Positions 6,672 to 53,253 of a stretch of DNA of 64,000 nt are shown here, piece by piece (position 1 is the stretch's first letter; each line of letters opens with the position of its first letter). Source of the DNA: Elsinoe ampelina (Eukaryota); contig ML992517.1 in the NCBI GenBank assembly GCA_010093995.1, positions 262,677 through 326,676 on the forward strand, given 5' to 3'. A model generated the notes under the pieces. The model had not been told where the DNA came from. It was given only the letters and a program-made list of their open reading frames with translations, and searched no databases. The position numbers and the translations under genes were made by a program.

Positions 6672-9006
6672 ACTATTCTCTCTCTACTAGTATCTATCCT
6701 AGATATAAATAGAAACTAGCTTATACCTTAGCTAGATACTTACCTATCTAGATAGCTCTTCCTTAGAGACCCTAAATAGGACTACTCTTAGCTATATAAA
6801 CTACTACCTATTAGACTCTCTTTAATAATAGATATAACTATAAGTGTTAAAAGATACTAGTATATTCTTATAGTTAGCTACTATCTCCTCTACTACTATA
6901 CGCTACTATCTTTATATATTTAACCTACTTCTAGTAAGTCTCTTATTCTTATTCTCTAATAGCTCTAATAGTTTCTCTTTCTTCTTACTTTTCTTAACTA
7001 TCTCTTCCTTATTATTCTTTATTATTATTATATCTCTAGAAGTAATTATACTATAAGAAGTAGAGTTAGAATTATTATAAGGTACTAGAACTAAGTTTTA
7101 CTTCTTATAGTAAAAGAAAGAATATACTCTAGTATAGTACTACTTCTTATATATCTTAACCTTATTCTAAGCTATATATACCTAGACCTTAATCTACTTA
7201 TAAATCTTAGTTACTTTTACCTAAGCTACTACTAAGTTATTAAAAAGAAGAATAGTAACTTTTTCTACTATAGTTAAATTATTCTAATAAATATACTTAA
7301 CTAATATATTACTTACTAGACTATTAATCTTTAGATAGATAGCTATAAGAAAAGTAAGATATATAGACCTATATATATTTAGCTTACTTAAAGAAGTAAG
7401 GGTAGTAAGCTTCTTTTTTATATATATATTAACTAGGGAGAAGTAGATACTATTCTTATTCTATTCTAGAGTCTTATAATTAGTACTAATACTATAGTAC
7501 TATAGCAGAAAAGTATAGTAAATACTAGTAGTAGGACTAGTAGAACTATATAAAGTATAAAGTATAGTAAGATAAATATTATTAGCCTTATAGAGAAAAA
7601 GCTTTTACTTAGTACTATATTTAGCCTTATCTTCTAAAGTAAAATACTAAGGAGAGATATTAATAATAGAAGTATTATTTAGAATTTTATAAGCCTTAAG
7701 GTCTATAACCTATTCCTTTATATAGTAATATATACTATAGACTATAATAGTATAATTACTCTTAGTCTTATTATCTAAGCTAAGGAAGCTCTATATAGTA
7801 TTAATACTATAACTAGTAGCTAGTAAACTAGGGTTAATATTAATATAGTAGAACTAAGTATAATTACTCTTCTAAGTATACTTAGTATAGTAAGAGTAGA
7901 AGATTAACTAAATATATCTATTAGAGTAATAAGCTATATAGAGATAGTAGTACTTAGAGTCTATATATATAGCTTACTAAGTAAAAAAATAAAATATATT
8001 TCTTAACTATCTAAGCTATCTCTTACCCTTAGAAAAACTAAAGTAGTAGTAGTATATCTTAATCTTCTCTAAGAAAATATCTATAAGATCTATATTAAAC
8101 TAAAACTTAAAGATATTTATACTAATATTTCTATTAGCTAACTACTTATCTAAAAGACCTTAATAAAAACTATTAAGAATTACTTTATATTAGTTAGTAT
8201 TAATATATTATTCTAGAAGTATAGTCTTATACTTAAAAGTACTTCTTTTAGTAGCTACTTACTTATAATAAGCTAAAGGAACTAACTACTAAAAGGTCTT
8301 TTAGTATATCTCTATTATATCTAGGGTACTATTAAGGTAGAAGTTATACTAATAGTTAATATAATAGTAAAGAAGATTCTAAGAAATATTAGAGAGAAGA
8401 TATAGATAATAGACTAATATATAGGTATATAGGTAGTAGATAGAGCTTTTAGTACTTAAATCCTTATTACGCTATTAGTCTATAATAATAGCTAGCTCTA
8501 TAGTACTAATACTCTTCTTTAATAATATAGCTATCTTTAATTCTTATAAGATACTCTTATATATATATATCTTCTTTAGATTCTCTTTACTAGGTTTAGT
8601 AGTAGTATCTTTACCTCTATCTATAGTAAGTATAGAGATAGAATAGTCTACTAAGATAAACTCTCTATTATCTCTAATATAACACTTCTTACTTAGGGAC
8701 CTAGTATAACTCTTATACTTAGGCTTCTCTTAAGGCTCTTTAATAGACTTAATAATTCTCTTATCTTCTTCTTCTTTATTCTATAGCTAATTTTATAGAT
8801 ATATATAAATAGACCTATATACTAAATCCTTAAAGTAGATAGAAGAAGCTATATAAGATTCTAGATCTAAGCTAGGCTTAGATTTAGAAATACTAGAGTT
8901 TACCTAAGTAGTAATATTATTCCTTATAGTAATACTAGTATACTATATAATTATAATAGTAATCCTAGCTAAATTAGACTCTAATATACTAAGCTTACTA
9001 TAAGTA

Positions 9007-9428
9007 TATTACGAACTATCTAAACATAGCCTACGCTAGTAGTCTAAGCTAAGCCGAGAATAAGGTAGTTCTACTTCTATAGTAGTATAGTACTAAGGTA
9101 AGAGTCGGAGAAGGTATGTCTTATAGATAATAAAGTACAATTAGATAGTATTATAAAGACTAGCCTTAGTAATACTAGTATTTACTATCTAGACGAGATT
9201 AACTATAGTACTTATAGAAGGTAAGAACTATATACTATATATAGTACACTCTATAGCGTAAGAGTTTAGTAGTATTAGAGTATTAGTAGTAAAGCTACTA
9301 TCCTATAAACACTATAAACTATTTCCTAATTAGGCTACGTTACGTGTCCTAGGTTGCCTTGTCTTAGCGTAGAGTTAATTAGTTGTCTATAACTTGTTCT
9401 ATAGGTCTCTTAAGAGACCTTCGTAATA
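9007..9428 (-). repeat. 3' LTR of B
   Basis: Direct repeat of the split LTR 22976-23279 + 29548-29665. Confidence 0.95.
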
Positions 9429-9525
9429 CTATTCCTCTTCTAGCTAGAGTCGTCCTTAACGTTTATAACTACGTTGTTCCTTAGGTTATCTCTTTTCTTT
9501 ATTTTTCTTATAGTTATAGCTAACT

Positions 9526-10110
9526 ATAGACAGCTTTTGTGTTAATAAGAAGAATAGAAGCTAAAAACCTCCGCGGTCCTAGAAGTAGCGTTATATCGAC
9601 ATAGCTAACACTTTATTAACGCCTAAGAATATTACGATAGTTACTTATATAAACTGTCTAGAATCGGGTATAGTATATTATTTTAATTAGGAACGGTTAG
9701 TGAAATGCGCTAAGTGCTAGAGGCATAACCGAAAATATAATAGTACTTTCTCGTTTAAGAAATATTACTAGGTAGGTAAGTAAAAGAAAGTTATAAAGGT
9801 AAAGAGCCTTTAAAAATAAAAGGAGATAGCTTAGCTAAGGAGGAATCTTATCGCAGCGTAATAGGCGCTTACTATAGCTAAAGTAGAGAACTTGTCTCTA
9901 TAGAAGAATATTATAAAGCTAGATAAGAAGTCTAATTAGATACTTCGTTATAAGATAGAAGCGTTAGGCGCCTTTAACGTAATAGACCCTTCTACTAAAA
10001 TCTCTTTAGGAGACTACAACTTCGTAGTAGACGAGATGCCTATTATTTAGATAGTTAACTAGTCCGATTAGGGTTTAGACCCTAGTAGATCTTTAGAGCT
10101 TATCGGGTAA
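9526..10110 (+). pseudogene. Antisense accessory ORF of B: Zn2Cys6-like cluster plus coiled coil, ~194 aa before RIP
   Basis: One 585-nt frame from ATA (RIP of ATG) to TAA. 9646-9738 reads (C)INCLESGIV(C)YFN*ERLVKCAKC*RHNRK(C), i.e. C-x2-C-x6-C-x9-C-x2-C-x6-C with 3 Cys intact and 3 as TAT. A K/E/R/L-rich helical stretch follows. Confidence 0.75.
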
Positions 10111-13100
10111 GATACTCTTCTAGTTTCTAGGTGTTCTTACTTTACTAATACTCTTTCTAGTAGATTAAGTAGTAGCGTTTCTAGTTAATAAGCTTATAAG
10201 TTATAACTCTCTCGATCTTATATCTAGGTTATTACGTCTCTTTATCTAGTTTAATTAGTCTAGGTATAGCGTCCTATAGTGCCTTTTCTAGTAATAATAT
10301 ATAAAATACTAAGTAGATCCTTATATATCTTAGTAGTTCTAGTTTGTATATGTTTTTATTTTTCTTTTTAAGGATCCTAAAAGGTCCTAACTTAGTGTAA
10401 TTTAGTTTTTTGCTTAGTCTTTTAGTTTTAATATTTTTACTAAGGAGGTAAACTTTCTTTCCCTCTTATAGAATTAGTCCTATAATTCTTTTTTAGTTAG
10501 TAAATTCTGCTATTCTTTGTAATATAAATACTATATTATAGTATAGCTAGTCGTATAACTTTTTAATATTAGTTACTAATATATTAGTGTCCTTAGATAT
10601 TAGCTTAATTCTAAGCGTATTATAGTATAGATCTAGGTATATTCTATAATTTACATAAAAGAGTAAGACTCTATTTACTAATTTTCTATTATTAATAGCA
10701 AGCTCTATAAGTAGTAATAGTATTGCCTAAGAATCTTGTTTATAGTTAAGGTAGTAACGTAGGTACTATTCTAGTACTTAATTAGCTCGCTTAGTTTGTC
10801 TATCTATTTATAGATAAAAGAAGGTCGACAATTTATGTTTAACTCCTAGTAGGTCTATAAATAATTACTAGAATTGTAATATAAATAACTTATCCCTATT
10901 AGTAATTAGATCCTATAGTACTCTATACTATAAAACGATTATTCGGAGGAAGGTAAAGGCTATATCCTCTATAGTTACTATTATCTTATATAGTATAAAG
11001 TAGTAATACTTCGTAAACCTATCTACTAGAACTAAAATGCTATTATACTTTACGCCTATAAGAGGCTCTTCTAATAATAGTAAGAGTCCTATAAAGTCTA
11101 TTATAACTAATTACTATAGTTTATCTAGTAGTAGTAAGAGTTATAGTAGGCTATATAGCTTATGTTATAAGTACTTAGACTTATAGTATATATCGTATAT
11201 AGTGATATATGTCTTAATATCGTTTTGAAGTCCTTTCTAGAGGTAGTTTTATATAATAAGTTTAATAGTCTTATTAATCCTACTATGTCCTACTATTAGG
11301 TTATTATAGTATATTTAAATAACTTTTTGTTTTTGTTCTTATATAAGCTTCTAGGTAAGGCTATATAGTTACTCTACTTTCGGGTACTTATAGACTAAAG
11401 TGCTATCTTACTACTTTAATATAGAGGCCTCTATTATTGTTATATTCTTTAAGTAATCTAGCTATTAGCTAAGAGCGTCTACTCCGCTATTCTCTAATTC
11501 CTTAATATAATAAATCTAAAAGTTGTAGCTTATAAGTGTTTCTAACTATTAAATCTATTATCTATTAAGAACCTTAGTTATTGTCTAATATAGAAGGTTC
11601 TTATAGTTAGTATAGACTTATATAGGTAAGGTTATTCCTTCTAGGTATACTCTCTACTTACGGAATGCTTCTATAATTATAAGTAGTTCTTTGTTATATA
11701 TATTATAGTTAAGTTTAGGTCTAGTTATTTTTTATAAGTAGTATATAATTAGGTAGCGTTGTCCTTATACGTCTTTCTACGCTAGATATACTTCTATTAC
11801 AAAGTCTAAGGCATCTAATTTCTAGTAGTACTTATTAGTCTAGGTCGTAGAGTACTAGTATAGGTACTATTATAAGTCTAAGCTTTAGCTCCTTAAAGGC
11901 CTACCTATATTCTTCGTTAAAGACAAAGCTAGTTTCTTTCTTCGTAAGGTTAGATATTAGCGTAGCTACTTTAGAGAATTCCTTAATAAACTTATAGTAG
12001 TAGTTAAAGAACTCTAGTAGCGCTTAAACTTCTTTAACTATAGTAGGTTCTAGCTAGTTATTTACTAACTTAATCTTCTTTAGATTAGGTCTAATGCTAT
12101 TAGTAGATATAATATAGCTTAGAAATTATATCTTATATTTATAAAACTTATACTTAGAGAGCTTTACTAGTAGGTCTTTTTCCTTTAGTTTTTATAGTAC
12201 CTTATAAATATGTCTTATATATTTATTATATATCTTAGAGAAAACTATAATATTATATAAGTAAGCTAAGATAAAGTTATTAAGGTACTTCCTAAGAGTG
12301 TTATTAATTAATTCTTAGAAGAATATAGGTATATTAGTTAGGCTAAAGAGTATAACAAGGTACTTATAGAGTCCTTATCTAGTCCTAAAAGCTATCTTCT
12401 ACTCTTTACTATCCTTTATCTATATTTAGTAATAGGCGTCCCTAATATTAATTATAGTAAACTATTTAGCTCTAATAAGTTAATTCTAAAGTTTGTCGAT
12501 CCTTAGTAAAGAATAATAATTCTTTCTAGTAATTATATTAAGTTTCTAGTAATTAATATATAGTTGTAGTAATCTATCCTTCTTAGGTACGAAGAGTACT
12601 CTATATATAATTAGTAATTTTAATAGTTATATAAATCCTTTCTATAGATACTTATTAATATATTTCTTAAGGAAATCTTTCCCCTTTTTTAATAATAGTA
12701 TAAGACCTTAGTAGTATATTAGGGATTTACTCTCCTTGAAAGGTATTTTATAATTCTATATTTTATTAGGGTGGTTAAGTGGGTAATTACTATACTCTTT
12801 AGAGTATAGTAATTACAATGTAACTTTTCGTGAAATTTTCGTGTTTTTTGATATTTTAACGTGCATTAGTAAGCGTATTTTACTAATAAAGATATTTTGT
12901 CTATACTATCAAAAATTCTGCATTTTCTAGTACTATTTTTGCTTATGTAATCTTAGATCCTGATTTTTAGTAGTGATTTCAAATTTCTTTCTTCTTCTAA
13001 AAATCAGGATCTAGGATTACGTAAGCGAAAGTAGTACCAAAAAATGTAGATTTTTTTATAGTATAGAAAAAATACTTTAGATTATAAAAGAAGCTTACTA

Positions 13101-13790
13101 ATACACGTAAAAACATCAAAAAACACGAAAATTTCACGAAAAGTCACGTTGTAATTATACCTACTCGACCACTCTATATTTTATGTTAGAGTAAGGCTAT
13201 AATACCTTCCCTTTCCTTAAATAAGTCCTTAAAGTCTTTATATTCTAGTAGAAGTACTTAATTACTTACGCTAGCGATAGCTCTAACTATTAGTCGTACC
13301 TATACTATTCTTATAGTTAGTATCTATAGAGCTAATTATACTTCCTATATTCTATAATTATACTTAGGGAATTCGAGTGTTTCTTTAATCTAGTCTACTT
13401 CTAGATTGTGTTATTAAAGCTAGTCTATACTAAGTACTATATTATACTATATATTAACTATATTAATTAGTTGTTTTTCTATATTTATTTTAATTTTAAT
13501 TATAATATTTTGTAGTTCTTAAGTAACTTTCCTATCCTTTTCTATAGAGGTTCTATCTACTATAGTAAGTAGGTAAGGTAACTCCTTCTAGTGTTAATAA
13601 GGTTTAAGCTAATTAGTAACTATTATAGAAACGTAGCTATAGTTAGCTCCTAAATCTATTATTACTCTTACCTTACTTCCTTATATCTAGGCTTCTAGTA
13701 TAAAGTAATTCGACATATAGATCTTTATTATATTAAGGCTTTAGCTAGTATTGTTATTATACCTCGATAGGTAATAACTAGCTAGTTTTT
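10055..13790 (-). pseudogene. pol remnant of B (PR, RT, RH, IN, chromodomain), interrupted by the MITE; ends approximate
   Basis: RT region ~12240-12620, RNase H Y(D)KELL ~11690, RI(HP)VF(H)..LLE and YYLI.(W)K(G)Y...NT(W) chromodomain at ~10110-10330. Confidence 0.88.
12767..13176. mobile_element. 410-bp non-autonomous fold-back element (MITE), hAT-like by TSD length
   Basis: TIRs tagggtggttaagtgggta (12767-12785) / tacctactcgaccactcta (13158-13176), 8-bp TSD TATTTTAT (12759-12766, 13177-13184), ~160-bp inverted arms 12810-12970 / 12997-13157. Confidence 0.9.
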
Positions 13791-14525
13791 TATTATTATA
13801 GCCTCTTAGATAAGTAGTTAATCCCTCCCTGTATATATCTATTATTAGTACTATATCTACTAAGCTAGCTATATTTTGTCGTTGTTTAATATAGTAAGGT
13901 AGACTTCTAGAGCTTAAGTCCCTTAATAGCTATAAAGTCTAATAATCCTCTATTAGTTATACTAAGTAGTACTATATACTTATATTAGTATAACTATTCC
14001 CTCTAGATATAGCTACGTATTAGCGTTAAAGATAAACACGAGTTATATAGACTTATCTTATTATGTCCTAGTCTAGTAGTAGATGTATATTATTATATAA
14101 TTTCTCTATATCCCTATAAGGTATACTTTAAGTCGTCCGCCCGGTAGTAGTATATTATCGTTGTTATTATTAGATAAGTTCTTATCTATGTTATTATATT
14201 ATAGTTATTTAATGTATTTTTCGTTATATTTCTCTTTGTCGCTACTGTCTCTAGTATAGTTATAATTAGTAAAGCTATACTAAGTACATTCTCGTACTTA
14301 GCTATAGAGAGTAGTACTACCTATCTTAATTACTAAGAAGTCTATAGTATACTCGAGACTTATAGCCTCTTCTCTAAGTACATTATATAAGTAGATAGTG
14401 TAGTACTACTTATAATTTAGATTTATACATTTCTAGAGCGATATATAATATACCTTTCCTTATAGTTTGCTATAAGAGCTAAAGGTAAGACTACTATATT
14501 ATTATATAGCACTTGCGTCCTAATA

Positions 14526-14756
14526 TGTTAGGGGTAAATTATATTAATACTAGTAAGTATATATAATAATTAACTTATAGTAGTATAAGGATAGCTCTTA
14601 ATTAGTAGTACAAATAATACTTAAGGAAGCTAACTTCCTTAGCTAGTATATAGTAAGATTAGAGCCTACACGTATAGGCTATCCGAAGCTAGCTAGACTC
14701 TAGATCCTTATACCTAATTAGAAGCTTACACCTTATCTCTAAAAATCTCTATAATA
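14526..14756 (-). repeat. 3' LTR of C
   Basis: Starts TGTTA; direct repeat of 21379-21609. Confidence 0.95.
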
Positions 14757-15128
14757 TTACTTCCTTCTCTAAGCTAATGTCCTTAGTAGCTAGCCTTAAT
14801 AAAAACCTATTAGCCTTTATAACTATTATAGGAAAAGAGTATCTAGTATTACTACTTTATCTACTTATATTCCTTATATAATTTTTACACAGTCTATATA
14901 TAATTAGTAAGGTTATTGTAGCTTTATCGCTTCTAGAAAGGTAAGTAATATACGCTTTATTTAGGCTTTATTTAGGATTTTTACCTCCTAGGCCCTTAGT
15001 GCTAGGACTACCTTTATTACGTAGGACAATAACAATAAATATAGCTAGAATATATTTCTATAATGTACCTACACTTCTTAACTTCCTTAATAACACTTAT
15101 TACATATACCGCACCTTCTTTGCCTATT

Positions 15129-16112
15129 ATAGTTGCCTTTAGTAGACTAATATATATTAGCTCTACTACCCTTAGTTACGCCTATAACTATGCTTTCCGC
15201 TACTAAGTTACCTATAACATAACTATACTCTATATACTGACTTATATACGCTATATATATAAGATTATAAAGCATAGTATAATTTATAGTAGGCTAGACC
15301 TTAAGAGGTATAACTACTATACTAGAGGTAATAGATCTTCTTATACTCTAGTAAGAACTTTACTAAGTAATACTCTTCTACGACATTACTAATACACTTA
15401 GGTTCCTATTGTATTTAATAGTTGTATTAAGTATATATACTAGTTCTATAATACTTATATCTAGGCTATTAATACTAGTACCTTTCCTAGGAATAGGAGA
15501 AGCTAAGACTCTACTATCTAGCGTATAGACTTAGCTCTTATACGTGCCTAGTATACCCTTACTTAGTAGCTTAAGTATTATAGGCATATTATAGCTCTTA
15601 GAGAAAATCCCTTAGAAATGCTAACTAAGGTGCCTAAGTCTAGCCCTAACATAGAGAGGCTATAGCTATTAGAGTAGAGGAGAATTACTAATATCCTAGA
15701 ATAGATAGCTATTTAGTAGTTTAGCTATGTAAGTTTATACTCTACTTGCTTCTAGTTTGTATACTAATAGCTAGAATAGCCTAGTCCTCTTAGGTTTAGT
15801 AGTAGAGCTCCTAGTAGTAGGCCTTATCTATACTTTAGGCCTAGTAGTAGTCCTAGGGGTAGTAGTAGTAGTAGAGGTAGAAGTAATAGTAGCAGGGGTA
15901 GTAGCGTAAGTTTATACCTGCCTATTACCTATATCGTATACTAATATCGTAGCTAGGGTAGTAGGGGTAGTAATAATAGTAATAGGGATAGGGATAGCCC
16001 TAGCCCTAATAGAGATAGGGAGGATAGAGAGAATAGAGATAATAAGGATAGTAATAATAGCAAGAATAGTAATATAAGCTAGAGCCTACCTATTATCTAC
16101 ACCGCTTACTAA
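15129..16112 (+). pseudogene. Antisense, apparently three-intron accessory gene of C: six-Cys motif, helical middle, Gly/Asp-rich tail
   Basis: Six TAT codons spaced x2-x10-x7-x2-x7 at 15243-15344. Three GTAAG...TACTAAT...TAG units at 15351-15401, 15729-15779 and 15906-15956. agt/aat runs are consistent with RIP of ggt/gat codons. Confidence 0.65.
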
Positions 16113-16539
16113 TCTTATAGTTTAGAATAATAAGGAAGATAGAAGTAAGAGAGGTAATAATAGTAAGGAGTTTAGTAGTTTAAGTAATAAGGATACTAAT
16201 AACTAGATAGACGTAGTATAATCGCTGTTATGTATTATATTAATCGCTTACTAATAGCATAGCTAGGATAAAGAGAATAACTTAGATATTGTTATTAATA
16301 AGGATAAGAATAATAAGTAGTCGTCGCGCTTGTCGCTTATAGGTCAGCTATATAAAGCATATATAGTATAGGTATTTCTAGCATTATTCTTGTAAAGATA
16401 CTAGGCTAAAGAGCTATAGATAAAAATAGACAGTCTTAATCCTTAAGCTAATGTTTCTATTAAAGTTATAAAGCTAAAGTCTCTAGTACTAAGTATCTTA
16501 TTATAAGTATATAATAGTATTACTACAAGTTATTTATTA

Positions 16540-19500
16540 TTTACTACTAAGTTGCTTATTCTTCTCTTAACCCTAGCTATGCTTACTACTTTCTCTAAAC
16601 TTCCTTAATAAGTTATCTATCTCCTTAAAGTCTTTTTCCTTTATCTATAAGCTTTTAGTCTTATTATATCCTTCCTACTTAAGTAGATATTTCTTCTTTC
16701 TTACGTATATAGTATACTCTATAAGAATCTTCTTTATATACTAAACTTATTCTCTATCTTCTACTAACTCTAGGGCTCTTATGTTTAGTAATTCTTCCCC
16801 TTCCCTAGGGTAAAAGAGCTTTAGAAGAGATATATAAAACACAACGTGTATATAATAAGAGCTTAGTAGCTATAGGTAATATACCTAAGAGTTAATTGCT
16901 TCTTTAATATAAAATAGACCTACGAATTTGTCTATTAGCTTTCTACTTAGAGCTTTAAGCTTAAGGTTCTTTATGTTTAGCTATACTAAGTCCTTTAGCT
17001 TAAACTTTATTAGGGTATACTTCTTATTATAGTACCGGGTTTAATACTTAGCTACGGCCTTTAAGCACTCTTAAAGATTTACTTATAGTATTTATATATT
17101 TTATACTTGTTATATAGCTACTAGTACTTCCCCCTCTAGCTACCTATCCTTAGGTAGGTTATAGAGGATTAGGTACTTTCCTAGAATAATAAAGAACGGA
17201 GTTTTCTTTATTGCTATATATATTAAGTTATTATATATAAATTTAGCTATATAAAGCAAATTTGGCTAGTCTTTAGAATACTCTCCTATAAATACTTAGA
17301 GGTAGTATTTAAGTGTTTAATTCTAGCGTTCTATTTGCATATCGGTTTATAGATAGAAAGCTATACTTAACCTACGCTTTACCTATAGTTAATAGCAAAT
17401 TTTAGTCTAGAACTAGCTTATAAATAGAGATTCTCTATCTAATATAATTCTTTTCTATATACTATATTTACAAATTACATACTTAAAGTAGACATCTATA
17501 AAGTCTTTTATAGTCTATATCTCCTTAGCTATAATATAGATTACTAGCTTTAATAATCTATTATAAATTACTAAGATTATGTTATATATGCTACTATTAT
17601 ATATTATAGAGGAGAGCTTTATAATAAAGTCTAGTATAACTTCTTTAAAGATATTAGAAAGAATAGGTAGAGATAATAGCTTACTATATAGTATATACTT
17701 TAGTGCTTTTAACCTTTAGTATATGCTATATGTCTTAATATACTTATACACTTCCTAATCTAATAATAGCTAGTAGTAGTATCTACTAATTAGATTATGC
17801 GTTCTTATAGCGCTATAGTAGCTAGCTATATAAGAGTTATAGTATTAATATAAGATTTCTTATCTTAGACTTAGTTTATTAGAAATATAGAGCCTACCCT
17901 TATATATAAGAGTTTTATCTTTATATTTATACTATGCTAGCGACTTCTTACTGCTTTAGGTATGCTCTTCCTGCTCTAGATTAGCTATATACTTTAAAGT
18001 AAAAGTATTCCTCTACTAAAGTATATAGATAGTCTATAACATTAAAGTATCTCTTACTAATATAAGTTTACTAGTAATAAGTACTCTTACTAGACAGCGT
18101 AGTATATATAGTATATATTCTATAGCACTAGTAGTTAGGCTAGATCTACGTTTATAGGTTATAGGCTATTAACCTATAACCTCTAAGCTATACTTAGGAG
18201 TAGAGCTAATCCTACTAACAAGTTATACTCTTATAGTAACTAGACCTAATCCTAGTTTACTTACTAAGTTTAGCTTATGTTATAAGGTAGAGAGTAATCT
18301 TATAAGCGCGTAGTTCTCCTTAAAGTAGTCTACTCTCCTTAAGGGCCTATTAGCTAGATTTAACTTGCTAGAGTAGTACTAGACTTCGAAGTTAAAGGCT
18401 CCTAGGTAGGACACCTATTACGCCTAGCGCGAGTTAAGCTTACTTATGTCGTATATACCTTATAGGTTATTATAGTTACTTAGAACCTATATAGTATACT
18501 AAGTGCCCTTAAGGTAGTAACGCTACTACTTAAAGCAATAGACAATTACGTATAGTTCTTAGTTATATACCTCCTAGATATGCTCTACTCTCTAAAGCTT
18601 CTTAGAGATAAAGACAACTAGGTGCTATTTCTCGTCTTTATATAGCTAGGAGAGAATACCTACTACTATAAAGGTTAATATATCTATCTCTAGGCGTATT
18701 AGTAGCTAGGGGTCGAAATGTTATAGTAAAGGCGCTTCTATAAAGCATGCTTTAAGCTAAATAAAGCTAGCTTCTATAGCTTCTAGCTATATAAAGGTAG
18801 ATTACTCTTTCTTTAAGAGATCTATTATAGAGGCTATTAGTTTTGTATAATTCTAAATAAATCTATAATAGAAGTTAGTAAAGCTAAGGAATAACTAAAG
18901 CTCCTTAATGCTAGTCGGTTAAGGCTATCTAGAGATAGTTACTACTCGCGTAGAATTAGCGTAGATACCTCGTATATCTATAATAAACCCTAAGAAGAAT
19001 ACTTACTTTATAGTAAAGATATACTTAGACAGGTTTATAAATAGTTTAGCCTATCTTAACTATTTAAGAATAGCGCTTACTACTCGCTAGTAGGCATCTA
19101 GATCTTTGCTATAAGTATAGATAAGAATATTATTTAGGTATACTATACATAGATAGTCTACTAATCCTTTAAGAGTCTAGTTAATATAGGCCTAGAAGGT
19201 AGTAGGTATATTAGTAAGCTTAAAAGGTATAACTAGGTATTTAAAATAGCTATAATATATTCTAAAGGTAGTCTTCTACTTATCTCCTAGGCTAATACAG
19301 ATTCTGTTATAAGTATCCTTTAGATCTAGAGTTATATAGTAATATATGCCTAATAGGTAGTCTAGCGTCTTACTAATTAAGGAGAGTAGGTAGTAATCCT
19401 TTATAGTAATAGAGTTAAGGCCCCTATAGTTAATATATAAATAAAAGGTACTATCCTTCTTTAGCATAAATAGGATAGGTACCCCTACTAGGCTTATACT

Positions 19501-21330
19501 ATAACGAATCTAGCCCTTCTTAAGTATATCTTTAAGGTATAATTATAGTACCTTAAGCTTATATAAAGAGAAGTTATAGAGCAGGCTATAAGGTAGCTCC
19601 TTACCTAGTAGAATAGGAATTTAATAATTCTCTTCTTTAGTAGTAGGCAGGATTTTAGTAGTATTAGTATTAAAGACGTCCTAGTAGTCTAATAATGTAT
19701 CTAGTACCTAATTTTCCTAGGAGACACTTGCGATTTAGACGTAGATAATAACTTTCTTGCCTTAGAGGTTACTATAAACTACACCTAAGAAGTATATATA
19801 GCTCTCCTCTTATTCTAGCTACTAGATTATTACTATCTAGATACGTAACTTGTCTTTAATACCCTAAGCCTAAGTCTGCTATCTATAGTCTAGCTATATA
19901 GCTTCTCTTTATAAGAAGGAGTTACCTAAGAGTAGCTCTAGCTCTTCTTTATCTACTCTATAAGTAATAGTTTTAACCTAGTATATTACGCCTCGGTTAT
20001 TAGTAAGTATTACCTATATCTTATATATAGTATATATAGCTTTCCTTTCTAACTCTACCTAGGCTAGTTAAGGTAGGTTACTTAGTACTAAGTTAAGGTT
20101 TATCTTAATTACTATATACTAGCTAATAAGGCTAACCTCTACTTAAGGATCTAGAATAACTTCTACCTTATAGTCGACCCTAGTTGCTTCTATTATAATG
20201 TAGATATAATATATCCCCGGTAAAATGTTAATAGCTCTATACCTTATAGTTCCGGAGGTAACTACGAAACTTAGCCTTTTCCCTAGGCCTGTCTTACGTA
20301 AGTAATAGGCTTCTTATTAGCGTCTAAGAGTTAGGCTTTCTTTCTATACTTATTTATATAGTAGCCTATCTTCTTATAGAAGTAGTATTTAACTTTCGAC
20401 TTATAGGAGAAGTCTTTCTTAGGGGCTAACTCCTCTTTATATTAATCCTTACGTTATAGCTTTTAGCTATATCTAGCTAAGTAATTACAATAGTTCTATA
20501 GCTTACCTATGCCCTATAGGTTATACTCTAGCGTAGATCCTAAGATAATAAGACCTTCTCTTGTTAGAGGTATAGTATAGTAGTTTATAATTACTTACTA
20601 AAGTTCGAGGCGAAGTTTTAAAAATAGGTACTATATATAGTACTTCTCTAAGTAGGGGGGTAGCTAGTCCTTAATTGTTTCTAAATAGGTAGTAAAGGCC
20701 CTAATACTCTATCTAGGAAGTTATAGCGTAGTAGTATACATAGTAGTTGCTTCTAGAGTGTAATTAATAGAATTAGAGAGCATATCTAGTAGAAAGGTCT
20801 TAAATTAGCCCTAGGTATACGATTTTATAAGTGGCTTGTACTTTATATAAGAGTATTATACTTCGTATAGGTCTCTTATAAGATACTAACTTACCTAAGT
20901 AACTTTCTCTTATTCTAACTAGAAGTTCTCTAGAGTAAGCTAGAAGGCTATCTTATAGCTCTAAGTAAATTCCTTATATTCTCTTAGGTGTTTCTCTTTA
21001 TATTTCTTAGAATTCTTTAGCCTTATACTACGCTTTATATACGAAGGTCCTATATCTTAAGAGGTATAGCACTTATAACTTCTAGCTACTAATCTTGTTC
21101 CTATATTACTTTAGATCTTAATACTATTTAGATTTACTCCTCTCTTAAGGAAAGCAATTTGTTTCTTAATCTATCGGAGAGTCTATTCCTATAGGAGATA
21201 ATCCCTTTACTATTCTATATTATAGATATGCTTCTCGAGCGAGGTAGTTACTACTAGTAGTTCTCCCGGAGTAGTTATAGGGGTTCCTATACCCTTCTTA
21301 TTACTAATAGAGCCTAACTATGTCCTTATA
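16540..21330 (-). pseudogene. gag-pol remnant of C; ends approximate
   Basis: Zinc knuckle K(C)YF(C)KKIG(H)YINK(C) ~20345-20400. The ORF-track peptide 19276-19467 is an RT fragment (KKD..LYINYRGLNSITIKD..LDLKD). IVYL(DD)ILIY ~19120-19146; chromodomain KYLLK(W)EGY ~16660-16700. Confidence 0.92.
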
Positions 21331-21378
21331 ATAGCTATTCTTAGACTACTTCCTAAGTAGAGTAAGGAAGTATTATTA

Positions 21379-21609
21379 TATTAGGGGTAAATTATATTAA
21401 TACTAGTAAGTATATATAATAATTAACTTATAGTAGTATAAGGATAGCTCTCGATTAGTAGTGCAAATAATACTTAAGGAAGCTAACTTCCTTAGCTAGT
21501 ACGTAGTAAGATTAGAGCCTATATATATAGGCTATCCGAAGCTAGCTAGACTCTAGATCCTTATACCTAATTAGAAGCTTATACCTTATCCCTAAAAATC
21601 TCTATAATA
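21379..21609 (-). repeat. 5' LTR of C
   Basis: Direct repeat of 14526-14756. Confidence 0.95.
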
Positions 21610-22975
21610 TAATACTTTATTTTAATAATTATATATTAGTAATTATCGCTAACTACCTTCTAAGGTTAGTTAATATCGCTACTAATTATAGAAAGCCTTT
21701 CTAGGTTAACTCCCTAGTCTAGCTATTTTATTAGTTACCTACGCTTAGATAGCTTATATAGGAACTAACTAGATTCCTACTTATCTAATAAGTAAATATA
21801 ACAAGAGTTATTATAATATACTATCTATAATAGCGTCGCGTATTAGCTCTACTACTTATTGTTAGTTATAGAGATATTAAGTATAATATCTAAAGAGAAT
21901 TCTCTTATCTCTTAAGTTATTATAGATCTCTTCTATGTTTCCTTACCTACGCTAAAGGTTATTAGGTCTTCTATAGTAGTGTTAGCCTTTATCTCTACTA
22001 GCCTAGCAACTATTATATATAATCTATTAGCTAGCGCCCCTTATTAGTAGTCCCTAGCTCGATACCTAAGTCTTTTATATTTAAAATATAAGTTGTCTCG
22101 TTTATACTTCTCTCTCTCTTTTCTACTAAGGAACTTTCCTCTATAGCTATAGCCTTATACCTATAAGGGGTAGCTTTCGCGTATAGCGTTAAGTTCTATA
22201 GAGTCTCTATAGTTTCGAGAAGAACATATATATCTAGTATTTACCTTATATTCTCTATAATATTCTATACGTCGTTCGTAAAGTCTATTATTAATAGCAA
22301 TTATAGTGTCTACTAGTTCTTAAAGGCTATTAGGTAGCTTAAGTATTATTTAGTCTTTAACTAAGTCGCTTAGTCCTTAGTAAAATACTAAGTGTTTAGT
22401 ACTATTATTCTAGTCTAGGTATATTATAAGTTATTAGAATTAGAAATAGTACTAGGCTATAGACCTACGTTATTATAGTTATTAGATCTTTGTCGTAGTA
22501 ATATATTCCTTATCTAATACGTTAAAGACTTACTTAATCTTAGCCTAGAATAGACTAAAGCTTTTAAAGATAGCCTTTATGTCTAGACTTAGTTACCTAT
22601 CTAGGTAGCCTTCTATATAGAGTTTAAACTACCTAAAGGTAGTACTCTTAAGCTATATACTAGTATAGAGGACCTTAGCTATATTATTAGCGTACTTATC
22701 TCTCTCTAGAGTAAAGAAGGCCTTAAGCTAGATAAGGAAGTACCTTAGGTAGGCGCGGTCTCTATAGAAGAGTTCTATCTCTACCTTAGGCTTACCTCGA
22801 CCTTTGCCTATACTAATAGACCTTCTATATTTACTCGAGGTTAAACTAGTAGTAGATATATCGTTAATAGTAAGTCTTCCTAGCTTACTAGTAATTAAAG
22901 ATATTAATAGTAACTTAGAGTAAGAGTTACTTATTAACCTTATAACGTACTATACTATAGTAAGAGTAGTTAAAA

Positions 22976-25900
22976 TGTTATAAACTATCTAAACATAGCC
23001 TACACTAGTAGTCTAAGCTAAGCTAAGAACAAGGTAGTTCTACTTCTATAGTAGTATAGTACTAAGGTAAGAGTTAGAGAAGGTATATCTTATAGATAAT
23101 AAAGTATAATTAGATAGTATTATAAAGGCTAGCCTTAGTAATACTAGTGTTTACTATCTAGATAAGGTTAACTATAGTACTTATAGAAGGTAAGGACTAT
23201 ATACTATATATAGTGTACTTTATAGCGTAAGGGTTTAGTAGTGTTAGAGTATTAGTAGTAAAGCTACTATTCTATAAACTAATTACGACTAGCAAGACAA
23301 GAGGTTTATTATGTCTATTTATTAAGATATTAAGACTTAGAAGAAGAAGAAGAAAAGCTAGTATATAAAGCACGCGTAATATCGAGGGTAGAGTAGCTAG
23401 AAGCCTAGGCTATAATACCGAGATTATATAACTAATCTAAACTAGATCCTAACTAAATCTAGTTCGTATCTATCTCGTATTACTACTCTCTCTCTTAAGC
23501 GTGTTTACTCTTAAACGCTATTATATATTATTTATTAATCTATTTCGGCCTTAGCTTATCTATGTAAGAGTCTAGATAGTCGCGTAGCACGTTAGTTACT
23601 CCTTTAAGGTTGTTAATTAGCTACTAGGTAAGATCCTCTAGATAGCTCTTTTAGCTTATATAAGTAACTAGCTTCCCTCGTAGTATACGTATGTTAATTA
23701 CGTTATCTACCTTATACTCTTTCTTACTATCGATCTCTACTAGAGGTAGTTCCTTAAAGGCTTAGCCTAGTAGAGGGTTATTTAGGTGCTTAGTAAGGAG
23801 GTTAGTATAGAACATAAAGTAAATCCTTTATAGAGTAGCTAGTAGATCGAGCTTATATACTAATAGCAACTGTTTTTTAAGGATCTTATAAGGACTAACA
23901 TGCTTTAGTAGTAGCTTTAGATTGCTCTATAGCCGAAGGTTTTTCGTCGATAACTACACTAAATCGCTAGCTTTAAACTCTATTAGCTAGCGGTGTTTAT
24001 TAGCTTACTCTACTATTTATAACTAAGTAATAGTAAGGCTAGCTTTAGTAATAGTAAGGGCTTCTTCTAGTTATTTAGTAAGCGCGCGAATTTTAGCCTT
24101 ATTAAGCTTAGCTCTTGTTAATAGTACATCGGCAGGGAGCTAGAAGCTTATTCTTAGCTTATATCCTCTAGTTACCTCGAATAGTAATAGCTTAGTACTT
24201 TCCGAGGGGTTAGCGTTTATAGAGAACTCTATAACTAGTAGAATAAGAGTCTAATTACTAAACTATGTTATATAGGATCGAATAACTCGTTTAAACTCTT
24301 AGTTTATAACTTCTAATTAGTTGTCTATTTAAGGGTAGCTAGTAGTAGATAGCTTAGCTATAATCTTTAGGATCTAGTAGAGTCTCTTTTATACGTCGCT
24401 AACGAACTAAGGGCCGTAGTTAGAGGTAATACTATCTAGTAGGCTATATAGTTTCTACACGTAGAAGAATAATAGCTTAGCTATCTTAAACGTAGAGGTT
24501 TCTCCTTCTCCCTAGAAGTAAGAGATTAAGTGTCGCTTCTTAGATAAGTAATCGACAACACATAGTACTACGTTATAGCTATCTACTAGGGGTAGGCTAG
24601 TAACGAAGTCTATAGTAATATGTTACTAAGGCCTTACCGGAATAGGTAATAGCGATAGGAGGCTAGCTAGTAAGCTATAGCGAGCCTTTAAGCGCTTATA
24701 GTTGTAATAGTTAGCTACGAACCTCTTAACAAAGTTATTATAGCTTAGGATATAAAAGGTAGTCTTAATTATAGTAGCCGTTTTAGTAGCTCCTTTATGT
24801 ATATAGTCCTTCGATGTATAGACTTCTTAGATAACCTTTACGGCTATTAACTACAGCACGAATAGTTAGCTAGCGACCTATAACATCCCTTTATTAATAG
24901 TAACATCGCTTAATAGTAGCTATTTCCTCTTTAGGAAGGCCTCTATTATATAGTAGATGCCTCTAACTGTTTTGCACTTAGCGTCTTATAAGTTAGCTTT
25001 AGCTACTTCTTTAAAAAGGAGTAAAGATTCTTCCGCGGCTAAGATAGGTACTACGTAGATACCTAGTTCGGCGGCCGAAATAGGCGCCGATATAGGTAGC
25101 GAAATAGGAGGCAAAATCGGTAGCGAACTAGATAGCGAACTACTCTATAAACTAGATGCTAAACTAGATCTTAGTTCGGCTTAGATTAGTAATCTAGTTT
25201 AGATGCGACCTAGATTTAGTTCGTTAATAATGCGCTAATCTAGCACCTTATATAGTAGTAGCGTCTAGCGTAGATTAGAGTCTTCTCTTAAACGTAGTAT
25301 ATCTCTATTTCTTCTTATAAGCGTATTAGCCTTGCCGTTAGCGGCGCTAGGCCTATATATAATCTTAAAGTTAAACTATGTAAGGTAGAGAACCTAGCGT
25401 ACTTAGAGGCGTAATAGCTTCTAAGTCTTTATAAAGTATATTAAGAATTAGTAGTTAGTAAGAACGTAGATAGCCTTATTAGATTAAGTACTTATAAGCT
25501 TAGAGGCCTATTCCTTAAAGGCTTAGATAATTACTAGTAGTTCCTTGTCGTAGATAGCGTAGTTACGTTCGGCTTTATTTATAGATTTACTAAAAAAGGT
25601 AATAGGCTAGAGAACGTTAGACTCGTTATATTATAATAGAATTCTAGTAGTAGTAGTGTTAAAGGCGTTAGTCTTAAGGACTATCTACTTCGAGCGATTA
25701 AAATATATAAGGATAGACACACTTATAATAGTATACTTTATGTAGTTAAATACAGTAGTGTACTTGTCGTTTTATAGTATAGTATCCTTCTTAAGGAGAT
25801 TATTTAGTAGCTTAGCGATAGTGCTAAATCCCTTAATAAAGTAGCGATAGTAGCTATAGAAACTAAGAAAAGCTTCTTACCTAAGTAGTGTTACTAGGAG

Positions 25901-28900
25901 CTAGCTATTTCTAGGCTTGTATAGCTTCTATCTTCTTTAGATCTATTTTAACTCTATCTCGGCTAATAATAATACTAAGATACTTTACCTCTGTTAGGTA
26001 GAACTTACTCTTCTTAATATTAGTATTTAGGCCTAATTCGTAGAGTCTCTAGAGCACTAGCTTAATATACTTAGCGTGCTCTTAGTAGGAGCCGTTCGTA
26101 TAGATAAGAATATTATCTAGGTAGATCGACACGAAGCGCTCTAGTATATTAACGAAGTTATAATTTATAAACCTCTACTAGACTATAGAGGCATTAGTAA
26201 GGCTAAATAGTATTACTAGCTACTTAAAGTTACTTATGCGTATAAAGAATATAGTAAGATCTTTACTATCGACAGAGTTATAGAGGTAGTAGAAGGCTTA
26301 ATAGATATTAATCTTGCTAAACTATTTAGCCTTACTTACGCACGTAAGCGTTTCTTCGATAAGGGGTAGAGAATAGACATCTTACTTAGTTACCTTATTA
26401 AGGCTATAGTAGTTAACGTAGAGACAAAGTTCTCTATCTAGCTTATAAATAAAGAGAATAGGTAAGGAATAGCTAGTAGAACTTAGTGTAATAAAGCCTT
26501 TATTAAGATATTCTTAGATAAATTGTTCTACTATATCGAGTTCTTCTAGTAATAGGTAGTATAAAGGCTCTATATGTAGTAGCTTAGCGCTATCTTTAAG
26601 TATAATACAGTTGTCGAAATTCGGCCGATGCTAAGGAAGTATATTAGATTATTCTTTAGAGAAGATATTAGTAAACTTCTATAACTCCTCTAGGAGGACT
26701 ACTATAGGATCCGGTGCTAGCTTAGAGGCTATCTAGTAGTAGTCTTTAATATTCTTTACTAAGATTATAAACACCTTATTCTCTTAGTATTTAGCTACTA
26801 ATATAAAGGCAGCGGCGCTAATAAAAGCGATAGTTAGCTCTTCTTACTTAGTGTTACTTACATAGGCAGGTACGTAGAAGAACTTATATATTAACTAAGT
26901 ACTATAGGAGGTTAGCTTAAACTCTCCCTAATTTAGCTTAAAGTTCGACCTAAGAGCTAGTAGTCGATATAGTCTAGTTTACTCTATCTCGGTAGCCGAG
27001 CTAGAACCTAGTTCACGTATTAAACTAGAACTAAACTAATTCTAAACTAAAATAGTAGCTTTGCCGAGCTAGATTCCTAGATCTAAGCCGGGCTTAGATC
27101 TAGATTCTAGCCTTTCAATTAGCTATAGCGGCTTCTACTTAATAACTGTTAGCGAAAACTCTTCTTTATATATAACTCGGCCGTGCTTGTAGTTAATAGT
27201 GGCCCTATTAGCCTTAAGCTAGCCGAGGCTAAGGATAATATTAAATCGGCTAATATCTATAATGCGAAAGGTAGTAAGGTTATTTAGCTTACTAGAAATA
27301 GTAGTAGTAAGAGAAACACTATATGTAACTTGCTCTATTAGAACACTATTATAGGCTTAAAGCTAAATAGGACTAGCTAGTGCTACGGGGCAGCCGAAGC
27401 TCTTTAGCTTATTAAGAACATTATAATTAACTACGGCGCTAATAAGCGCGCTAGTGTCGATAAAGGCTTAAAGTATAATAGTGCGTAAGCGGTTATAGAG
27501 GTCGTAAATAGTAATAGAAGTTATAATAGCAGGGATATAGTAGCTAATAACACTATTTAGTAACTATATACCTCCGGATCTATCTCGAATTACCCTTATT
27601 CCGCTAGAGGATAGGACTTGTTCTCTAGCTACTTATTTCCCTAGCTAGAGAAACTAGTAGGCTCGTAGTCTATTTCGGGGTCGAACTAAGACTTAACTAG
27701 ATCTAGTTTGTAAGCCGAACTAGTGTCGACCTAGTTACTTAACTCGGCTAAGCAATCCTAAAGCTGCTATATCTCCTCTATAGCGCTAATATATATAAGG
27801 CATATAGCGGCGTAAGTAGCCTTCTCTAAGGCGCTAGCTATACACTTAGTAGAGATATATCTAGGCTTGCTATATATATAACAGGTAAGTACTAGAGCTA
27901 GACGAAAAAGCTATAGAGCACCTCTAGTAATAGGGCAGAAGGTAGGTAGAGCTATAGGCGTAGAGGTAAAATAAGGTACGTAAGTAGGTATAGTAGTAGT
28001 GTAGCTTATAGCTAGTATAGAACACAAAGCCTAAGTGCGCTTAGTAATAAGGTTGTTCTATCGAATATTATAGTTAGTAGCGTAGGCCTTAGTAATAAAG
28101 GTAGTAAGTTTATTAGTGTTATAGTTAACTAGAGTATTATATAGCTTATTAGATATCTTCTAACAGATCTAGTATAGCTACTTCTCTTTAGCAATCTTAG
28201 CGCGAAAAGCGTACTTATTAAACTTGCTAATAAAGGAGTTAAATATACTATTACACTAGAAGAGGTTAGCAAACTAAGTATATATAGTAGCTCTATAGTT
28301 AGGATCCTCGAAGCGCTAGGCTAGGAGAGTAAGAATCTCTTTAACGCTAATAACGTCGTTACTAGCTAAGTCTATAATAAGGGTATAGGCTTCTCTAGAG
28401 AGGCGTAAGTATAGATAGATAAACTAAGTGTCCCTTGTAGGGAAACGATCTACGTTAGTGTATATCTTATTTCTTATCTAGTACTTAAAGACCTCGAACT
28501 ACTCCGGTGTACCTATACTAAAGATAGTAGAGTCTAGTATCTTTTCTAACAAGGTAGAGCCACGTATAGAAAGGGCTAGTATACCACACTCTATCTCGTC
28601 TCTTAGTTAGTCTACCTTAGCCTTAAGCTTTTAGATTTTGTCTAGGTAGTAAGTAGCTTAGGTAGTAACGCCATTAGTATAGAACTAAGATATATCTAGT
28701 TCAGATTAGAAGTTACTAAGCTAGGCCTAAGTAGTATCTAACTTATAGTAATAGTAGAGAGCGTTAGTATAAGTGTCTTTTACCTATATAGTCTACTTAT
28801 TATAGAAGGACTTAATATAGTTAAATACATCTCTTAGTGCCTATATACTATACTCTTCCTATAGCTTCTTAAGGAGTCTAGCGTTAGAAAGAGCAAAAAG

Positions 28901-29665
28901 ATTATAGTAGGGGGAGTAGATAGAGGCGTTATTGTTGTTAGGGATAGGTTAAGGTAGCTTACTTTAGTAGCGCTCTTCGTCGCTATAGTTAGATTAAGCT
29001 ATACTTAGCGTAGTTAGTTGTAAATAGAATAGTATAAAAAGTCAATACGTAACAAAGGGAATATTAAAATTTTTAGCCGGTAGTCTACTTCCTTTAAGAG
29101 TCGTCTATAACTCGACTTATTACCTTCTTCTTATATCTTTAGAGTTTGCAGTATTAACCTATATAGCGGTAGCGAGGATCTATTATAGTGTGCGCGGGAA
29201 CTGTAGTTATAATAGCTTCTTCTTCGATTCTTTAATTCTTTATAAGTAGTAGTTATTAGTAGTTACATAAGTAGTAGAATAACTAGATAGTTTAATAGCT
29301 CTATTACTCGGTCGCGGTCGTTTCGAAGTCTTAATATAGTAATTATAACTAGCAAGACAAGAGGTTAATTACGTCTATTCGTTAAGATATTAAGACTTAG
29401 AAGAAGAAGAAGAAAAGCTAGTATATAAAGCACATATAATATCGAGAGTAGAGCGGCCGGAAGCCCGGGCTACGATGCTAAGATTACGTAACTAATCTAA
29501 ACTAGATCCTAACTGAATCTAGTTCGTATCTATCTCGCATTATAAACACTATAAACTATTTCCTAATTAGGCTACGTTACGTGTCCTAGGTTGCCTTATC
29601 TTAGCGTAGAGTTAATTAGTTATCTAGAACTTATTCCGTAGGTCTCTTAAGAGACCTTTATAATA
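22976..29665 (-). repeat. 5' LTR of B, split by A copy 2
   Basis: 22976-23279 (304 bp) + 29548-29665 (118 bp) = 422 bp, matching 9007-9428. Confidence 0.93.
23280..29542 (-). mobile_element. Chromovirus family A copy 2, full length 6263 bp
   Basis: 203-bp LTRs 23280-23482 and 29340-29542, TSD TAAAC (23275-23279, 29543-29547), FIDT protease motif ~27450-27465, IYLD RT motif ~26105-26126. Confidence 0.96.
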
Positions 29666-30999
29666 AAGTAGTAGAAGAAGTAGTCTCCTTAATATAACTA
29701 ATCTATACTAGCGTAACGCTCTTAACTAAAAATCTAAGCTTATTCTATATAAAGTTCTTTATCTACTAACTAGAATAGGTAGTAACTAACTTATTATAAA
29801 TAAGATTATTACTCTTTAGAGTCTAGCCTTTACTAATAAGGCTATAGGTTATAGTAATATTAATAGGCTAAAGATAGTAACTAGTAAGCTTTAAGAGTAT
29901 ACTTAACTAAGTAATTACTATATAGTATAGTATATTAATAGCTTTATAGATAGTTCTTGCCTTAGTAATAGTATTAAAACTACTCTAGGTAGTATTACTA
30001 AAATAGAGGTACTAGTCTATATAGAGGTCTAAGTTCTCTAGGTTATAGATAGTATTATAGATAGCCTATTACTATTTATCCTTATAGTTATAACTCTTTC
30101 TAACTTAATTATAAGTCTTATATATAGTAGAGAAGGTAGACTTCTATTCTTAAGTAGTTATATTAATAATCTTCTCTATATAGAAGTAGTTAATAATAGT
30201 AAAAATTATATCTTCTATATAGCCTTAAGTAGAGCTTATAAAGTTAAGAGTATAGTTATAGAACTCTAAGTAATTCTTAGGGGAAAGTATCTTTATAAAT
30301 ATAATAACCTCTTTAGCGTTCTTAAAAGTATTATCTCTATAGTAGAAAAGCACTTAGCTATTACTATTACTATTACTATGCCTATTACTATAGCTACTAG
30401 TATTAGAAGGGATAACTAATAAGCTAGGGTTAGTACTAGGCTATCTAGTATTATCTACTATAGTAGCGTATAAATCGTAGTATAAAATCTTAGTAGTAGT
30501 ATATATAAAAGTTATATAGGACGTTAGAATTTTACGCTATAGCTATAGATAATTAAATAAAACTAGCTCTAATTAAACTAAAGAGAGATACTCTCTAAAG
30601 TTATATAGAAAGAGATAATACTTATAAAAGTATAGAAAGGTATAGTATAAGGTAGAAGAATATTAAAGGTAGTTATTAATATAATATAAATTTTTCTACT
30701 ATAGTAGTAAGCGCTCTCTTATAGTAAGATAGATAACTCTCATTATATCTAAAACTTTTATATATCTTAAAGGTACCTTATACCTCTATATCTCTTCTTT
30801 TTCTTTTATATCTATAGTTATTTCTTTATCTTTATCTTTTACCTACTCTATATTTATTACTTATAACCTCTATAACTAGCTATTTACCTCTCTATCTATA
30901 CTTTTCTTCTTTATCTCTATTTTCCTTTTAAAAAAATCTTACTAAATAAAGATACTAAATAAAGACTATACTAAAGAAACTACTTAAATAAAAAAGATC

Positions 31000-47376: not shown

Positions 47377-47800
47377 ATATATTATAGACTTAGGGAGATC
47401 TAGACAAGATTAGTTAATACAAACTAAGGATAAACTATGTCTATAACTAACTCTTCGCTACTAGCCGGTATACTAGTAGCTATCTCGAACGTAGTATAAT
47501 CGGATATAGCTCTACTAGATAAGAATAACCTCCTAGTACTCCGCTCTATAGACGTGCCGCTAGTTGTACTTGCCGTAATTACTTACTCTTTCTTGTATAT
47601 ACCTTCTATTATAACCTTGTCTATGCCCTCCTCTTCCTTATGTACGTCACTATCGAGCCTACTATTACTATTACTATCTATTCTACGTACTAGAGATCGA
47701 GAGTTAAGGTCGGTAAAGAGACTAAGAGGATTGTCCGCTATACTATACTATATAGTAGGCAAAGAGGGAAGGACACTCTCTACCGGCTATAGACTTTTGT
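47377..47800. repeat. Internal direct repeat X, copy 1 (3' tail of paralog 1)
   Basis: Near-identical (mostly transitions) to ~54729-55155. Confidence 0.92.
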
Positions 47801-52330: not shown

Positions 52331-53253
52331 ATTACGTACGTCCGTAAGCTTAGTATATACTATAAATAAAGCTTAGAATAATATCTAGTAAATAGGTTAA
52401 GTAGGTATAGTAGATATTAAAGAAGAGATCTCGTAAAGGTATTATATATTTATAAGTTTAGAAGAATTAAGGAGAGGATTTATTAACGTAGTAGGTCTAT
52501 ATACTTCGTAATATATGCCTAACTAAGACTTAACTAAAGAGGAGATATTTAAGTAAAAAGTGCTTAAAAGAGAGATTAAAGAGGTTAAAGAAATACTAGA
52601 GAGCTATATAAGTTATTTATTTATATATAAGAGAGTATAAACAAAGGTAAACTAAAGCAATTAAGGAGAGAAGTAACCTAAATTTAGTCGACTTAGGTCG
52701 GGCCCTAAACTAAGTATGTAGTAGTATACTAGACACAGTATATATATAACAGTAGATTACTTAGTTTAGACACTAAACTAAGAGTAACTATAGTCTATAC
52801 ACTTAGTTACCTTTTATTTTATATGCTATATATACTAAGGATACTATTGTCGTATTTAGAGTAGATCTTAAGGGATAATAGTCTAATAAATAGAGGAAAT
52901 ATAGTAGTAGTTAACGTGAAATAATTAAACAATATTTTAATAGCGAAACTAGTATTTGTATATAAAGGACAATAGTAATAGAATATAAATAGAAGGTAGT
53001 TAGTAGCCTATAGCGGAATAAAGAGCATAGTATATATAGCGTATAGTATAGCTTATAGATGCTAGTAAAGGAACAAAGAAAGTAATATACTACTATCTAA
53101 TTATCTAGACTTTACAATTGCTATATGCGGAATTAAGTAGTAGAGTAGAGTAAAGGCTATACATTCCGCGGAATAGGTAGTTAATAGTACATTCTATATA
53201 ATTATAAATACGCTTTATTCCTCGCCTAGCCCTACTAGGAAGGTAATAGCGAG

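Follow-up and report, generated by a model that had tools for sequence, protein, structure and literature searches.

The window, i.e., the whole stretch of 64,000 nt analyzed here, covers positions 262,677-326,676 (forward strand) of contig ML992517.1 of Elsinoe ampelina (GCA_010093995.1; 28.3 Mb in 161 contigs). The DNA is severely decayed by RIP, with a GC content of 22-38%, RIP indices at saturation level (TpA/ApT of 1.7-2.2), and no ORF longer than 162 codons. Self-comparison and LTR edges delineated a nest of RIP-decayed Gypsy elements, in which element C (14526-21609) resides within element B (9007-29665). Both lie on the minus strand, and each possesses a pair of LTRs, a 5-bp target duplication, a polypurine tract (PPT), and pol domains in the order of PR-RT-RH-IN, as expected for Ty3/Gypsy, with Pfam matches to RT, RNase H, and SH3_Tf2. 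Element B begins with the 3' LTR (9007-9428, minus strand; target duplication AAGTA at 9002-9006 and 29666-29670) and the PPT (9429-9443, minus strand), followed by an antisense gene on the plus strand (9540-10050, RIP-decayed, approximate start) that comprises a six-site motif, a basic helical region, and a short tail. The decayed pol of B (10090-14520, minus strand; protease, RT, RNase H, integrase, SH3, and a probable chromodomain) is broken by a MITE-like insertion with 164-nt inverted arms (12810-13157, unstranded). This 348-bp element is less damaged by RIP than the surrounding DNA.

Element C follows the same plan. Its 3' LTR (14526-14756, minus strand; target duplication TAATA at 14521-14525 and 21610-21614) and PPT (14757-14773, minus strand) are adjoined by an unstranded non-coding block (14774-14845), and the antisense gene on the plus strand was divided into exon 1 (15129-15350), encoding a basic N-terminal arm and a six-site motif, intron 1 (15351-15401; GT..AG with a branch site), exon 2 (15402-15728; a conserved helical hairpin region), a second intron-like stretch (15729-15774), and a low-complexity and acidic tail (15775-16045, approximate end) that includes intron-like stretch 3 (15906-15952). 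The decayed gag and pol with a chromodomain (16579-21373, minus strand) and the 5' LTR (21379-21609, minus strand) complete the element. The rest of B (21615-22975, minus strand) is assigned to the gag region by its position in the LTR map, and the 5' LTR of B (minus strand) is split into two pieces (22976-23279 and 29541-29665) by an element of a third family, A (23280-29542). Elsewhere in the window, positions 1-275 are a piece of family B' (see below), and positions 47377-61201 hold two diverged tandem units of approximately 7.2 kb that contain a long, decayed frame on the minus strand. Gypsy pol was looked for in these units and was absent, and the first unit gave no Pfam match in six frames.

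The RT cores of A, B, and C share 35-43% identity (40% between B and C), and the RT tree left the order of the three families unresolved. The preliminary description regarded B and C as two chromoviruses with different LTRs, gag, and accessory ORFs, and the gag, LTR, and 3' intervals of B and C indeed gave no meaningful alignment. The chromovirus status is well supported for C, in which an intact relative bears a Pfam Chromo domain with an E value of 3e-12 (0.004 for the window piece with a local profile), and weakly for B, in which Chromo was detected with an E value of 0.015 in 1 of 15 pieces, that piece being from a B' copy. In both elements, the accessory gene is placed antisense between pol and the PPT, tail to tail with pol and starting 100-430 nt inside the PPT, and this slot is occupied in all nine aligned C copies and all three B copies. 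Thus, the architecture described earlier holds, but the six literal cysteines do not, as the window copies retain Cys at three (B) and none (C) of the six sites. Also as claimed, pol of family A ends approximately 40 nt from the PPT, and the family has no such gene; the compact 3' end is collinear in all 40 scored family-A matches of the genome. As family A is abundant without it, the accessory gene is optional at the family level.

The six-site motif of C (15243-15344; spacing x2-x10-x7-x2-x7) consists of six TAT codons in the window. The 1.8-kb interval of C is matched at 11 other places in the genome, eight of which were aligned with the window copy; among the nine copies, Cys remains only at site 4 (6/9) and site 5 (1/9). 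Resampling the interval 1000 times yielded Cys/Tyr patterns of this type in 131 cases, and, because the pattern alone is not significant, the proof comes from the homology to intact proteins. The gene is spliced and presents no simple ORF. Its intron-like stretches 2 and 3 are conserved up to RIP changes across the nine copies, every exon indel is a multiple of three with the sole 1-nt indel falling within intron 1, and the first codon lies 38 codons ahead of site 1, as in the intact relatives. A profile of eight C copies (read with X) retrieved seven natural proteins (E values of 2e-9 to 8e-4), those named being hypothetical proteins of Pyrenochaeta and Paraphaeosphaeria, and the second round comprised 27 proteins, adding those of Alternaria and Meristemomyces. 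The full-length proteins (approximately 165-240 aa; 38-64% identity to one another) share the motif C-x2-C-x10-C-x7-C-x2-C-x7-C, in which the six cysteines are invariant and spaced exactly as the Tyr codons of the window. When an intact protein was compared directly with the window copy by BLASTP, no alignment resulted, and the similarity of this copy was detected by profiles only; the profile-profile comparison of the C copies and the intact proteins aligned 166 columns with a probability of 98.8%. We therefore regard the C gene as almost certainly a real accessory gene.

A metagenome scan detected 20 C-type loci, 12 of which carry Gypsy pol on the opposite strand; these 12 are not independent observations and correspond to about five or six families. 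All six cysteines are present in 13 of the 20 loci, and the others are cut, decayed, or fragments. A scan of IMG/VR with an intact pol found nothing. In one intact element (L050), gag and a 1245-codon pol with a chromodomain are accompanied by an antisense gene whose end lies 84 nt from the stop of pol. Another locus (L052) contains two intact elements in tandem with one common LTR and a period of 6.4 kb, and differs from L048 and L050 by 15-16 non-synonymous changes in the accessory gene and 0-3 in pol. An intron of 47-56 nt, two codons past the sixth cysteine, occurs in all nine loci examined, and intron 1 of the window copy agrees with them in both position and phase. The dN/dS ratio ranges from 0.13 to 0.46 in 33 of 36 C-type pairs, albeit dS is saturated in many of the distant pairs; two close pairs give 0.62-0.66, and one pair has no defined value. 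In the five most trusted pairs (dS < 0.87; L043-L044, L055-L056, and L047 versus three others), it is 0.13-0.28. The corresponding values for pol are 0.06-0.10 in diverged pairs. Thus, the C gene is spliced, element-borne, and under purifying selection, yet evolves faster than pol.

Among the eight loci without pol, two (L047 and L060) are too short to include it, L061/L062 represent a 31-residue fragment, and two situated among host genes (L054/L055 and L056/L057) retain the PPT and LTR remains. The latter two hold an intact C-type gene (L055:1981-3077 and L056:8513-9774) that stops within the acidic tail, their host neighbours being a nucleoporin gene, and ABC transporter and HET/ankyrin genes; the copies may be remnants or may be at an early stage of domestication. 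Such pol-less genes among host genes are what we would anticipate if the gene were cargo acting on host genes, i.e., a captured or domesticated regulator for which the element is only a vehicle. We consider this improbable, as element flanks are retained in both copies, which have the appearance of 3' remnants, no element-free orthologue was found, and the gene and pol diverge along with the element.

The antisense gene and pol are convergent, and the separation of their stop codons by just 84 nt in an intact element invites the idea that the antisense RNA is the working part, limiting the element by double-stranded RNA or transcriptional interference, with the protein being secondary. Antisense RNA roles have been proposed for plant antisense accessory ORFs (aORFs) in the accessible part of PMC7264820. 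This idea is at odds with the constraint on amino acids and with six cysteines that stay invariant among proteins of 38-64% identity, both of which need a function of the protein, and we assign it a low probability. No spliced antisense junction was found on an intact element in four runs (three metatranscriptomes and one unlabelled), which offered unspliced contigs only and cannot show absence. A block of 60-90 nt beside the PPT is recognisable in both the window and the intact relatives (L044, L052, and L060), and an exact 12-mer of it occurs in 7 of the 20 loci. U3 differs among the C-type relatives and the block stays in the transcribed 3' region; we regard the block as a candidate target of the protein, as DNA or RNA. 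Upstream of the gene, where the antisense promoter presumably lies, GTAAACA-like heptamers suggestive of forkhead-type sites were spotted by eye in four loci (L043, L044, L055, and L056), and no enrichment of CGG triplets was visible in seven loci (2-8 per 630-800 nt).

The B gene had to be assessed from its own genome. The motif of B (9646-9738, plus strand; spacing x2-x6-x9-x2-x6) comprises three Cys and three Tyr codons in the window, and four of the six sites are Cys in at least one of three copies. Resampling the B interval 1000 times reproduced the pattern in 3 cases, and patterns of the same type occur 55 times over the whole window. The interval is common to just two other copies in the genome at 74% identity, and 164 codons align without gaps across the subfamilies. 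In this alignment, third positions take 20 of 29 transversions (p = 9e-5), which are informative since RIP does not create transversions; a frame test based on fixed stops failed because RIP was saturating. Read-through of pol as the source of the third-position bias was rejected, as the third positions of pol are different bases. The B translations gave no Pfam match, and a word-based protein search with the decayed alignment found no intact relative.

At least 37 other matches to B in the genome cover only the end of pol and constitute family B' (L004-L030 and L088). An antisense gene of B' is anchored in the same slot between pol and the PPT in 24 of 27 loci, with a spacing of x2-x6-x8-x2-x7 followed by a charged helical region; in the 23 loci tallied (three unanchored loci and one duplicate were excluded from the 27), ATG is present in 18, and Cys occurs at four of the six sites. 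Neither a word-based protein search with the B' alignment nor an IMG/VR scan with B' found an intact relative. Profile-profile comparisons of C with B, C with B', and B with B' were all negative and thus gave no support to a common ancestry of the B and C proteins. A comparison reduced to purines and pyrimidines gave a weak signal between B and B' (z of 2.8 and 1.6) and none with C, so that the B and B' genes may be distant homologs as judged from sequence.

As no intact relative was found, the gene status of B and B' rests on evidence within the genome, and we weighed whether their motif arose by chance or stems from a captured fragment in decay, leaving C as the only real gene. The high frequency of Tyr in RIP-affected DNA and the lack of both Pfam matches and database relatives would suit this explanation. 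It fits poorly with the third-position bias, the gap-free 164 codons, the rarity of the motif in the resamples, the presence in B' of another gene laid out in the same way, and one less mutated B' copy with five stops in 185 codons. We thus hold the chance explanation to be very unlikely, and the B gene to be quite probably a real accessory gene. Altogether, we interpret the B and C genes as genuine accessory genes that belong to the elements rather than as debris of the host, and the suspected recurrence of an element-borne accessory module is proven for C and likely for B, with a third form in B'. Neutral evolution, the case named at the outset as counting against such a module, is contradicted by the dN/dS of C and the third-position bias of B.

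The relationship between B and B' bears on how these genes move. In pol, the window copy of B differs from B' by 1.7-2.1% transversions and from the two copies sharing its own gene by 4.4%. B and B' have R/U5 in common, whereas U3 and the entire interval between pol and the PPT are unalignable. Near-identical pol combined with a different gene and a different U3 implies that the 3' cassette is exchangeable and can be explained by a single template switch near the end of pol. Since the 3' end of the RNA serves as the template for U3, a single switch would transfer the gene and U3 jointly, and their joint exchange is expected from replication alone. B and B' therefore offer a natural swap for asking whether the gene and U3 are matched. 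Two further Gypsy families of the genome have space in their 3' regions. In one (L082-L084 and L093-L095), approximately 1.4 kb separate pol from the LTR and include an antisense frame that runs for 124 codons without a shared stop, in which no six-site motif was recognised and no match to the C profile was found. In the other (L085, L087, L089, and L090), the 3' interval is long and shows, in antisense, a Cys/Tyr pattern of x2-x6-x20-x2-x6, which is suggestive only, with one Cys among two independent copies.

The preliminary description spoke of a zinc-cluster slot; that both proteins are zinc clusters in the sense of GAL4 (Zn2Cys6) is not supported by our searches. The Zn(II)2Cys6 pattern is C-x2-C-x6-C-x5/12-C-x2-C-x6/8-C. 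The spacing of B and B' fits this pattern only when the Tyr codons are counted as RIP-hit Cys, and the decayed translations of B and B' did not match the Zn_clus profile. The C type resembles the GAL4 type (PF00172) in having two CxxC pairs and six cysteines followed by a helical region, but its first loop of 10 residues falls outside the pattern, the proteins are only approximately 165-240 aa long, and the usual basic residues of the loop are not evident. The Zn_clus profile matched none of the intact C-type queries (0/5 and 0/3), and fold searches with two models and a profile search of PDB gave no meaningful match. The exon-1 model is of low confidence (pLDDT of 60), while helices were predicted for residues 77-137 with a pLDDT of 85-94. 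In the ESM Atlas, one Zn_clus cluster was present among ten structure rows, with a sub-threshold TM of 0.26; unnamed ascomycete clusters were also obtained, along with DUF8257, DUF8414, and DUF3716 as sub-threshold leads.

What the protein does can be approached from its layout. With a basic arm, a six-Cys module, a helical hairpin or a coiled coil, and an acidic tail, it recalls a fungal DNA-binding transcription factor (the first 180 residues are basic and the tail acidic in three of four proteins counted), which makes binding of the LTR or the PPT-side block the most likely job. Our leading, though tentative, proposal is that the accessory gene encodes a DNA-binding regulator of its own element, with somewhat less than an even chance of being correct. 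An antisense promoter in or beside the 3' U3 would drive the gene, the six cysteines would hold zinc, and the protein would enter the nucleus and regulate its own element. By acting on the LTR or the conserved PPT-side block, it could raise or time transcription in silenced chromatin. Plant antisense aORF products are nuclear and proposed to be regulatory in the accessible parts of PMC7264820 and PMC11963269.

The main competitor, which we consider possible but clearly less probable, is that the protein works after transcription or through protein contacts, either binding the element RNA, e.g., at the PPT-side block, for its export or packaging, or blocking a host silencing factor. The non-canonical Cys spacing without a GAL4-type match, the helical region being conserved better than the Cys loop, and the position of the cis block in the transcribed 3' region next to a variable U3 would be understood in this way, as would a weak match to the mRNA-binding zf-C6H2 (E value of 0.004, below the cut-off, in one of three exon-1 queries). 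The basic arm and acidic tail suit a transcription factor, and no RNA-binding or silencing-related domain was detected, both of which speak against this competitor. A bolder generalization would be that many ascomycete chromovirus lineages carry a zinc-cluster-like regulator with its U3 on an exchangeable 3' cassette, so that a modular system for trans-activation or anti-silencing would be widespread in fungal retrotransposons, with several unrelated or very distant six-Cys families hidden among "hypothetical proteins"; we regard this as speculative and rather doubtful.

Fungal Gypsy elements are usually annotated for gag and pol only, and gene callers file the six-Cys genes as host hypothetical proteins. 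In one genome, no fewer than three families carry a six-Cys gene, as do several intact families of other Dothideomycetes, and its selection and exchange between families suggest a regulator overlooked by standard transposon annotation. The gene provides a concrete, assayable protein for the question of what the antisense aORFs of LTR retrotransposons do, as well as a warning that some orphan Cys-rich "genes" of fungal genomes are parts of transposons.

Antisense genes in LTR elements are not new in themselves. HBZ of HTLV-1 is a retroviral antisense regulator, the gene of which is driven from the 3' LTR; the antisense, 3' LTR-driven arrangement is alike, but the protein is unrelated and the likeness is an analogy only. 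In fungi, the closest case is brtn of Boty, reported for Botrytis cinerea and Sclerotinia by Zhao et al. in 2011; the gene reportedly has three exons and encodes approximately 180 aa, and antisense repression has reportedly been suggested for it. An antisense promoter is noted for HTLV in the accessible part of PMC7264820. Plant aORFs (Grande gene23, RIRE2, and Retand TRP28) have their own promoters, are conserved within families, and are nuclear or predicted to bind DNA, according to the accessible parts of PMC7264820 and PMC11963269. They are identical to the B and C genes in position and orientation but belong to non-chromovirus lineages and encode other protein domains, the same parts of these papers reporting no six-Cys module. 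In the fungal chromodomain Gypsy Boty/BcGypsy1, brtn is an additional gene that lies antisense after pol and before the 3' LTR, i.e., in the same slot as the B and C genes, and additional ORFs in BcGypsy families appear in Fig. S1 of PMC8365987 (accessible parts of PMC7264820, PMC8365987, and PMC4227169). These parts mention neither cysteines nor zinc, the comparison being one of descriptions only, and no Botrytis protein was among the named matches of the second-round C-type profile search. The literature searched, which excluded subscription papers and Repbase, yielded no account of fungal LTR elements with antisense genes of the six-Cys or Zn2Cys6 kind. The suggestion of an under-described system is therefore to be narrowed. 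The slot itself is known; what appears undescribed in that literature is the six-Cys content, the recurrence of this content in distant families, and its swapping together with U3. BRTN may be a homolog of the B- or C-type gene, and hence itself of the six-Cys type.
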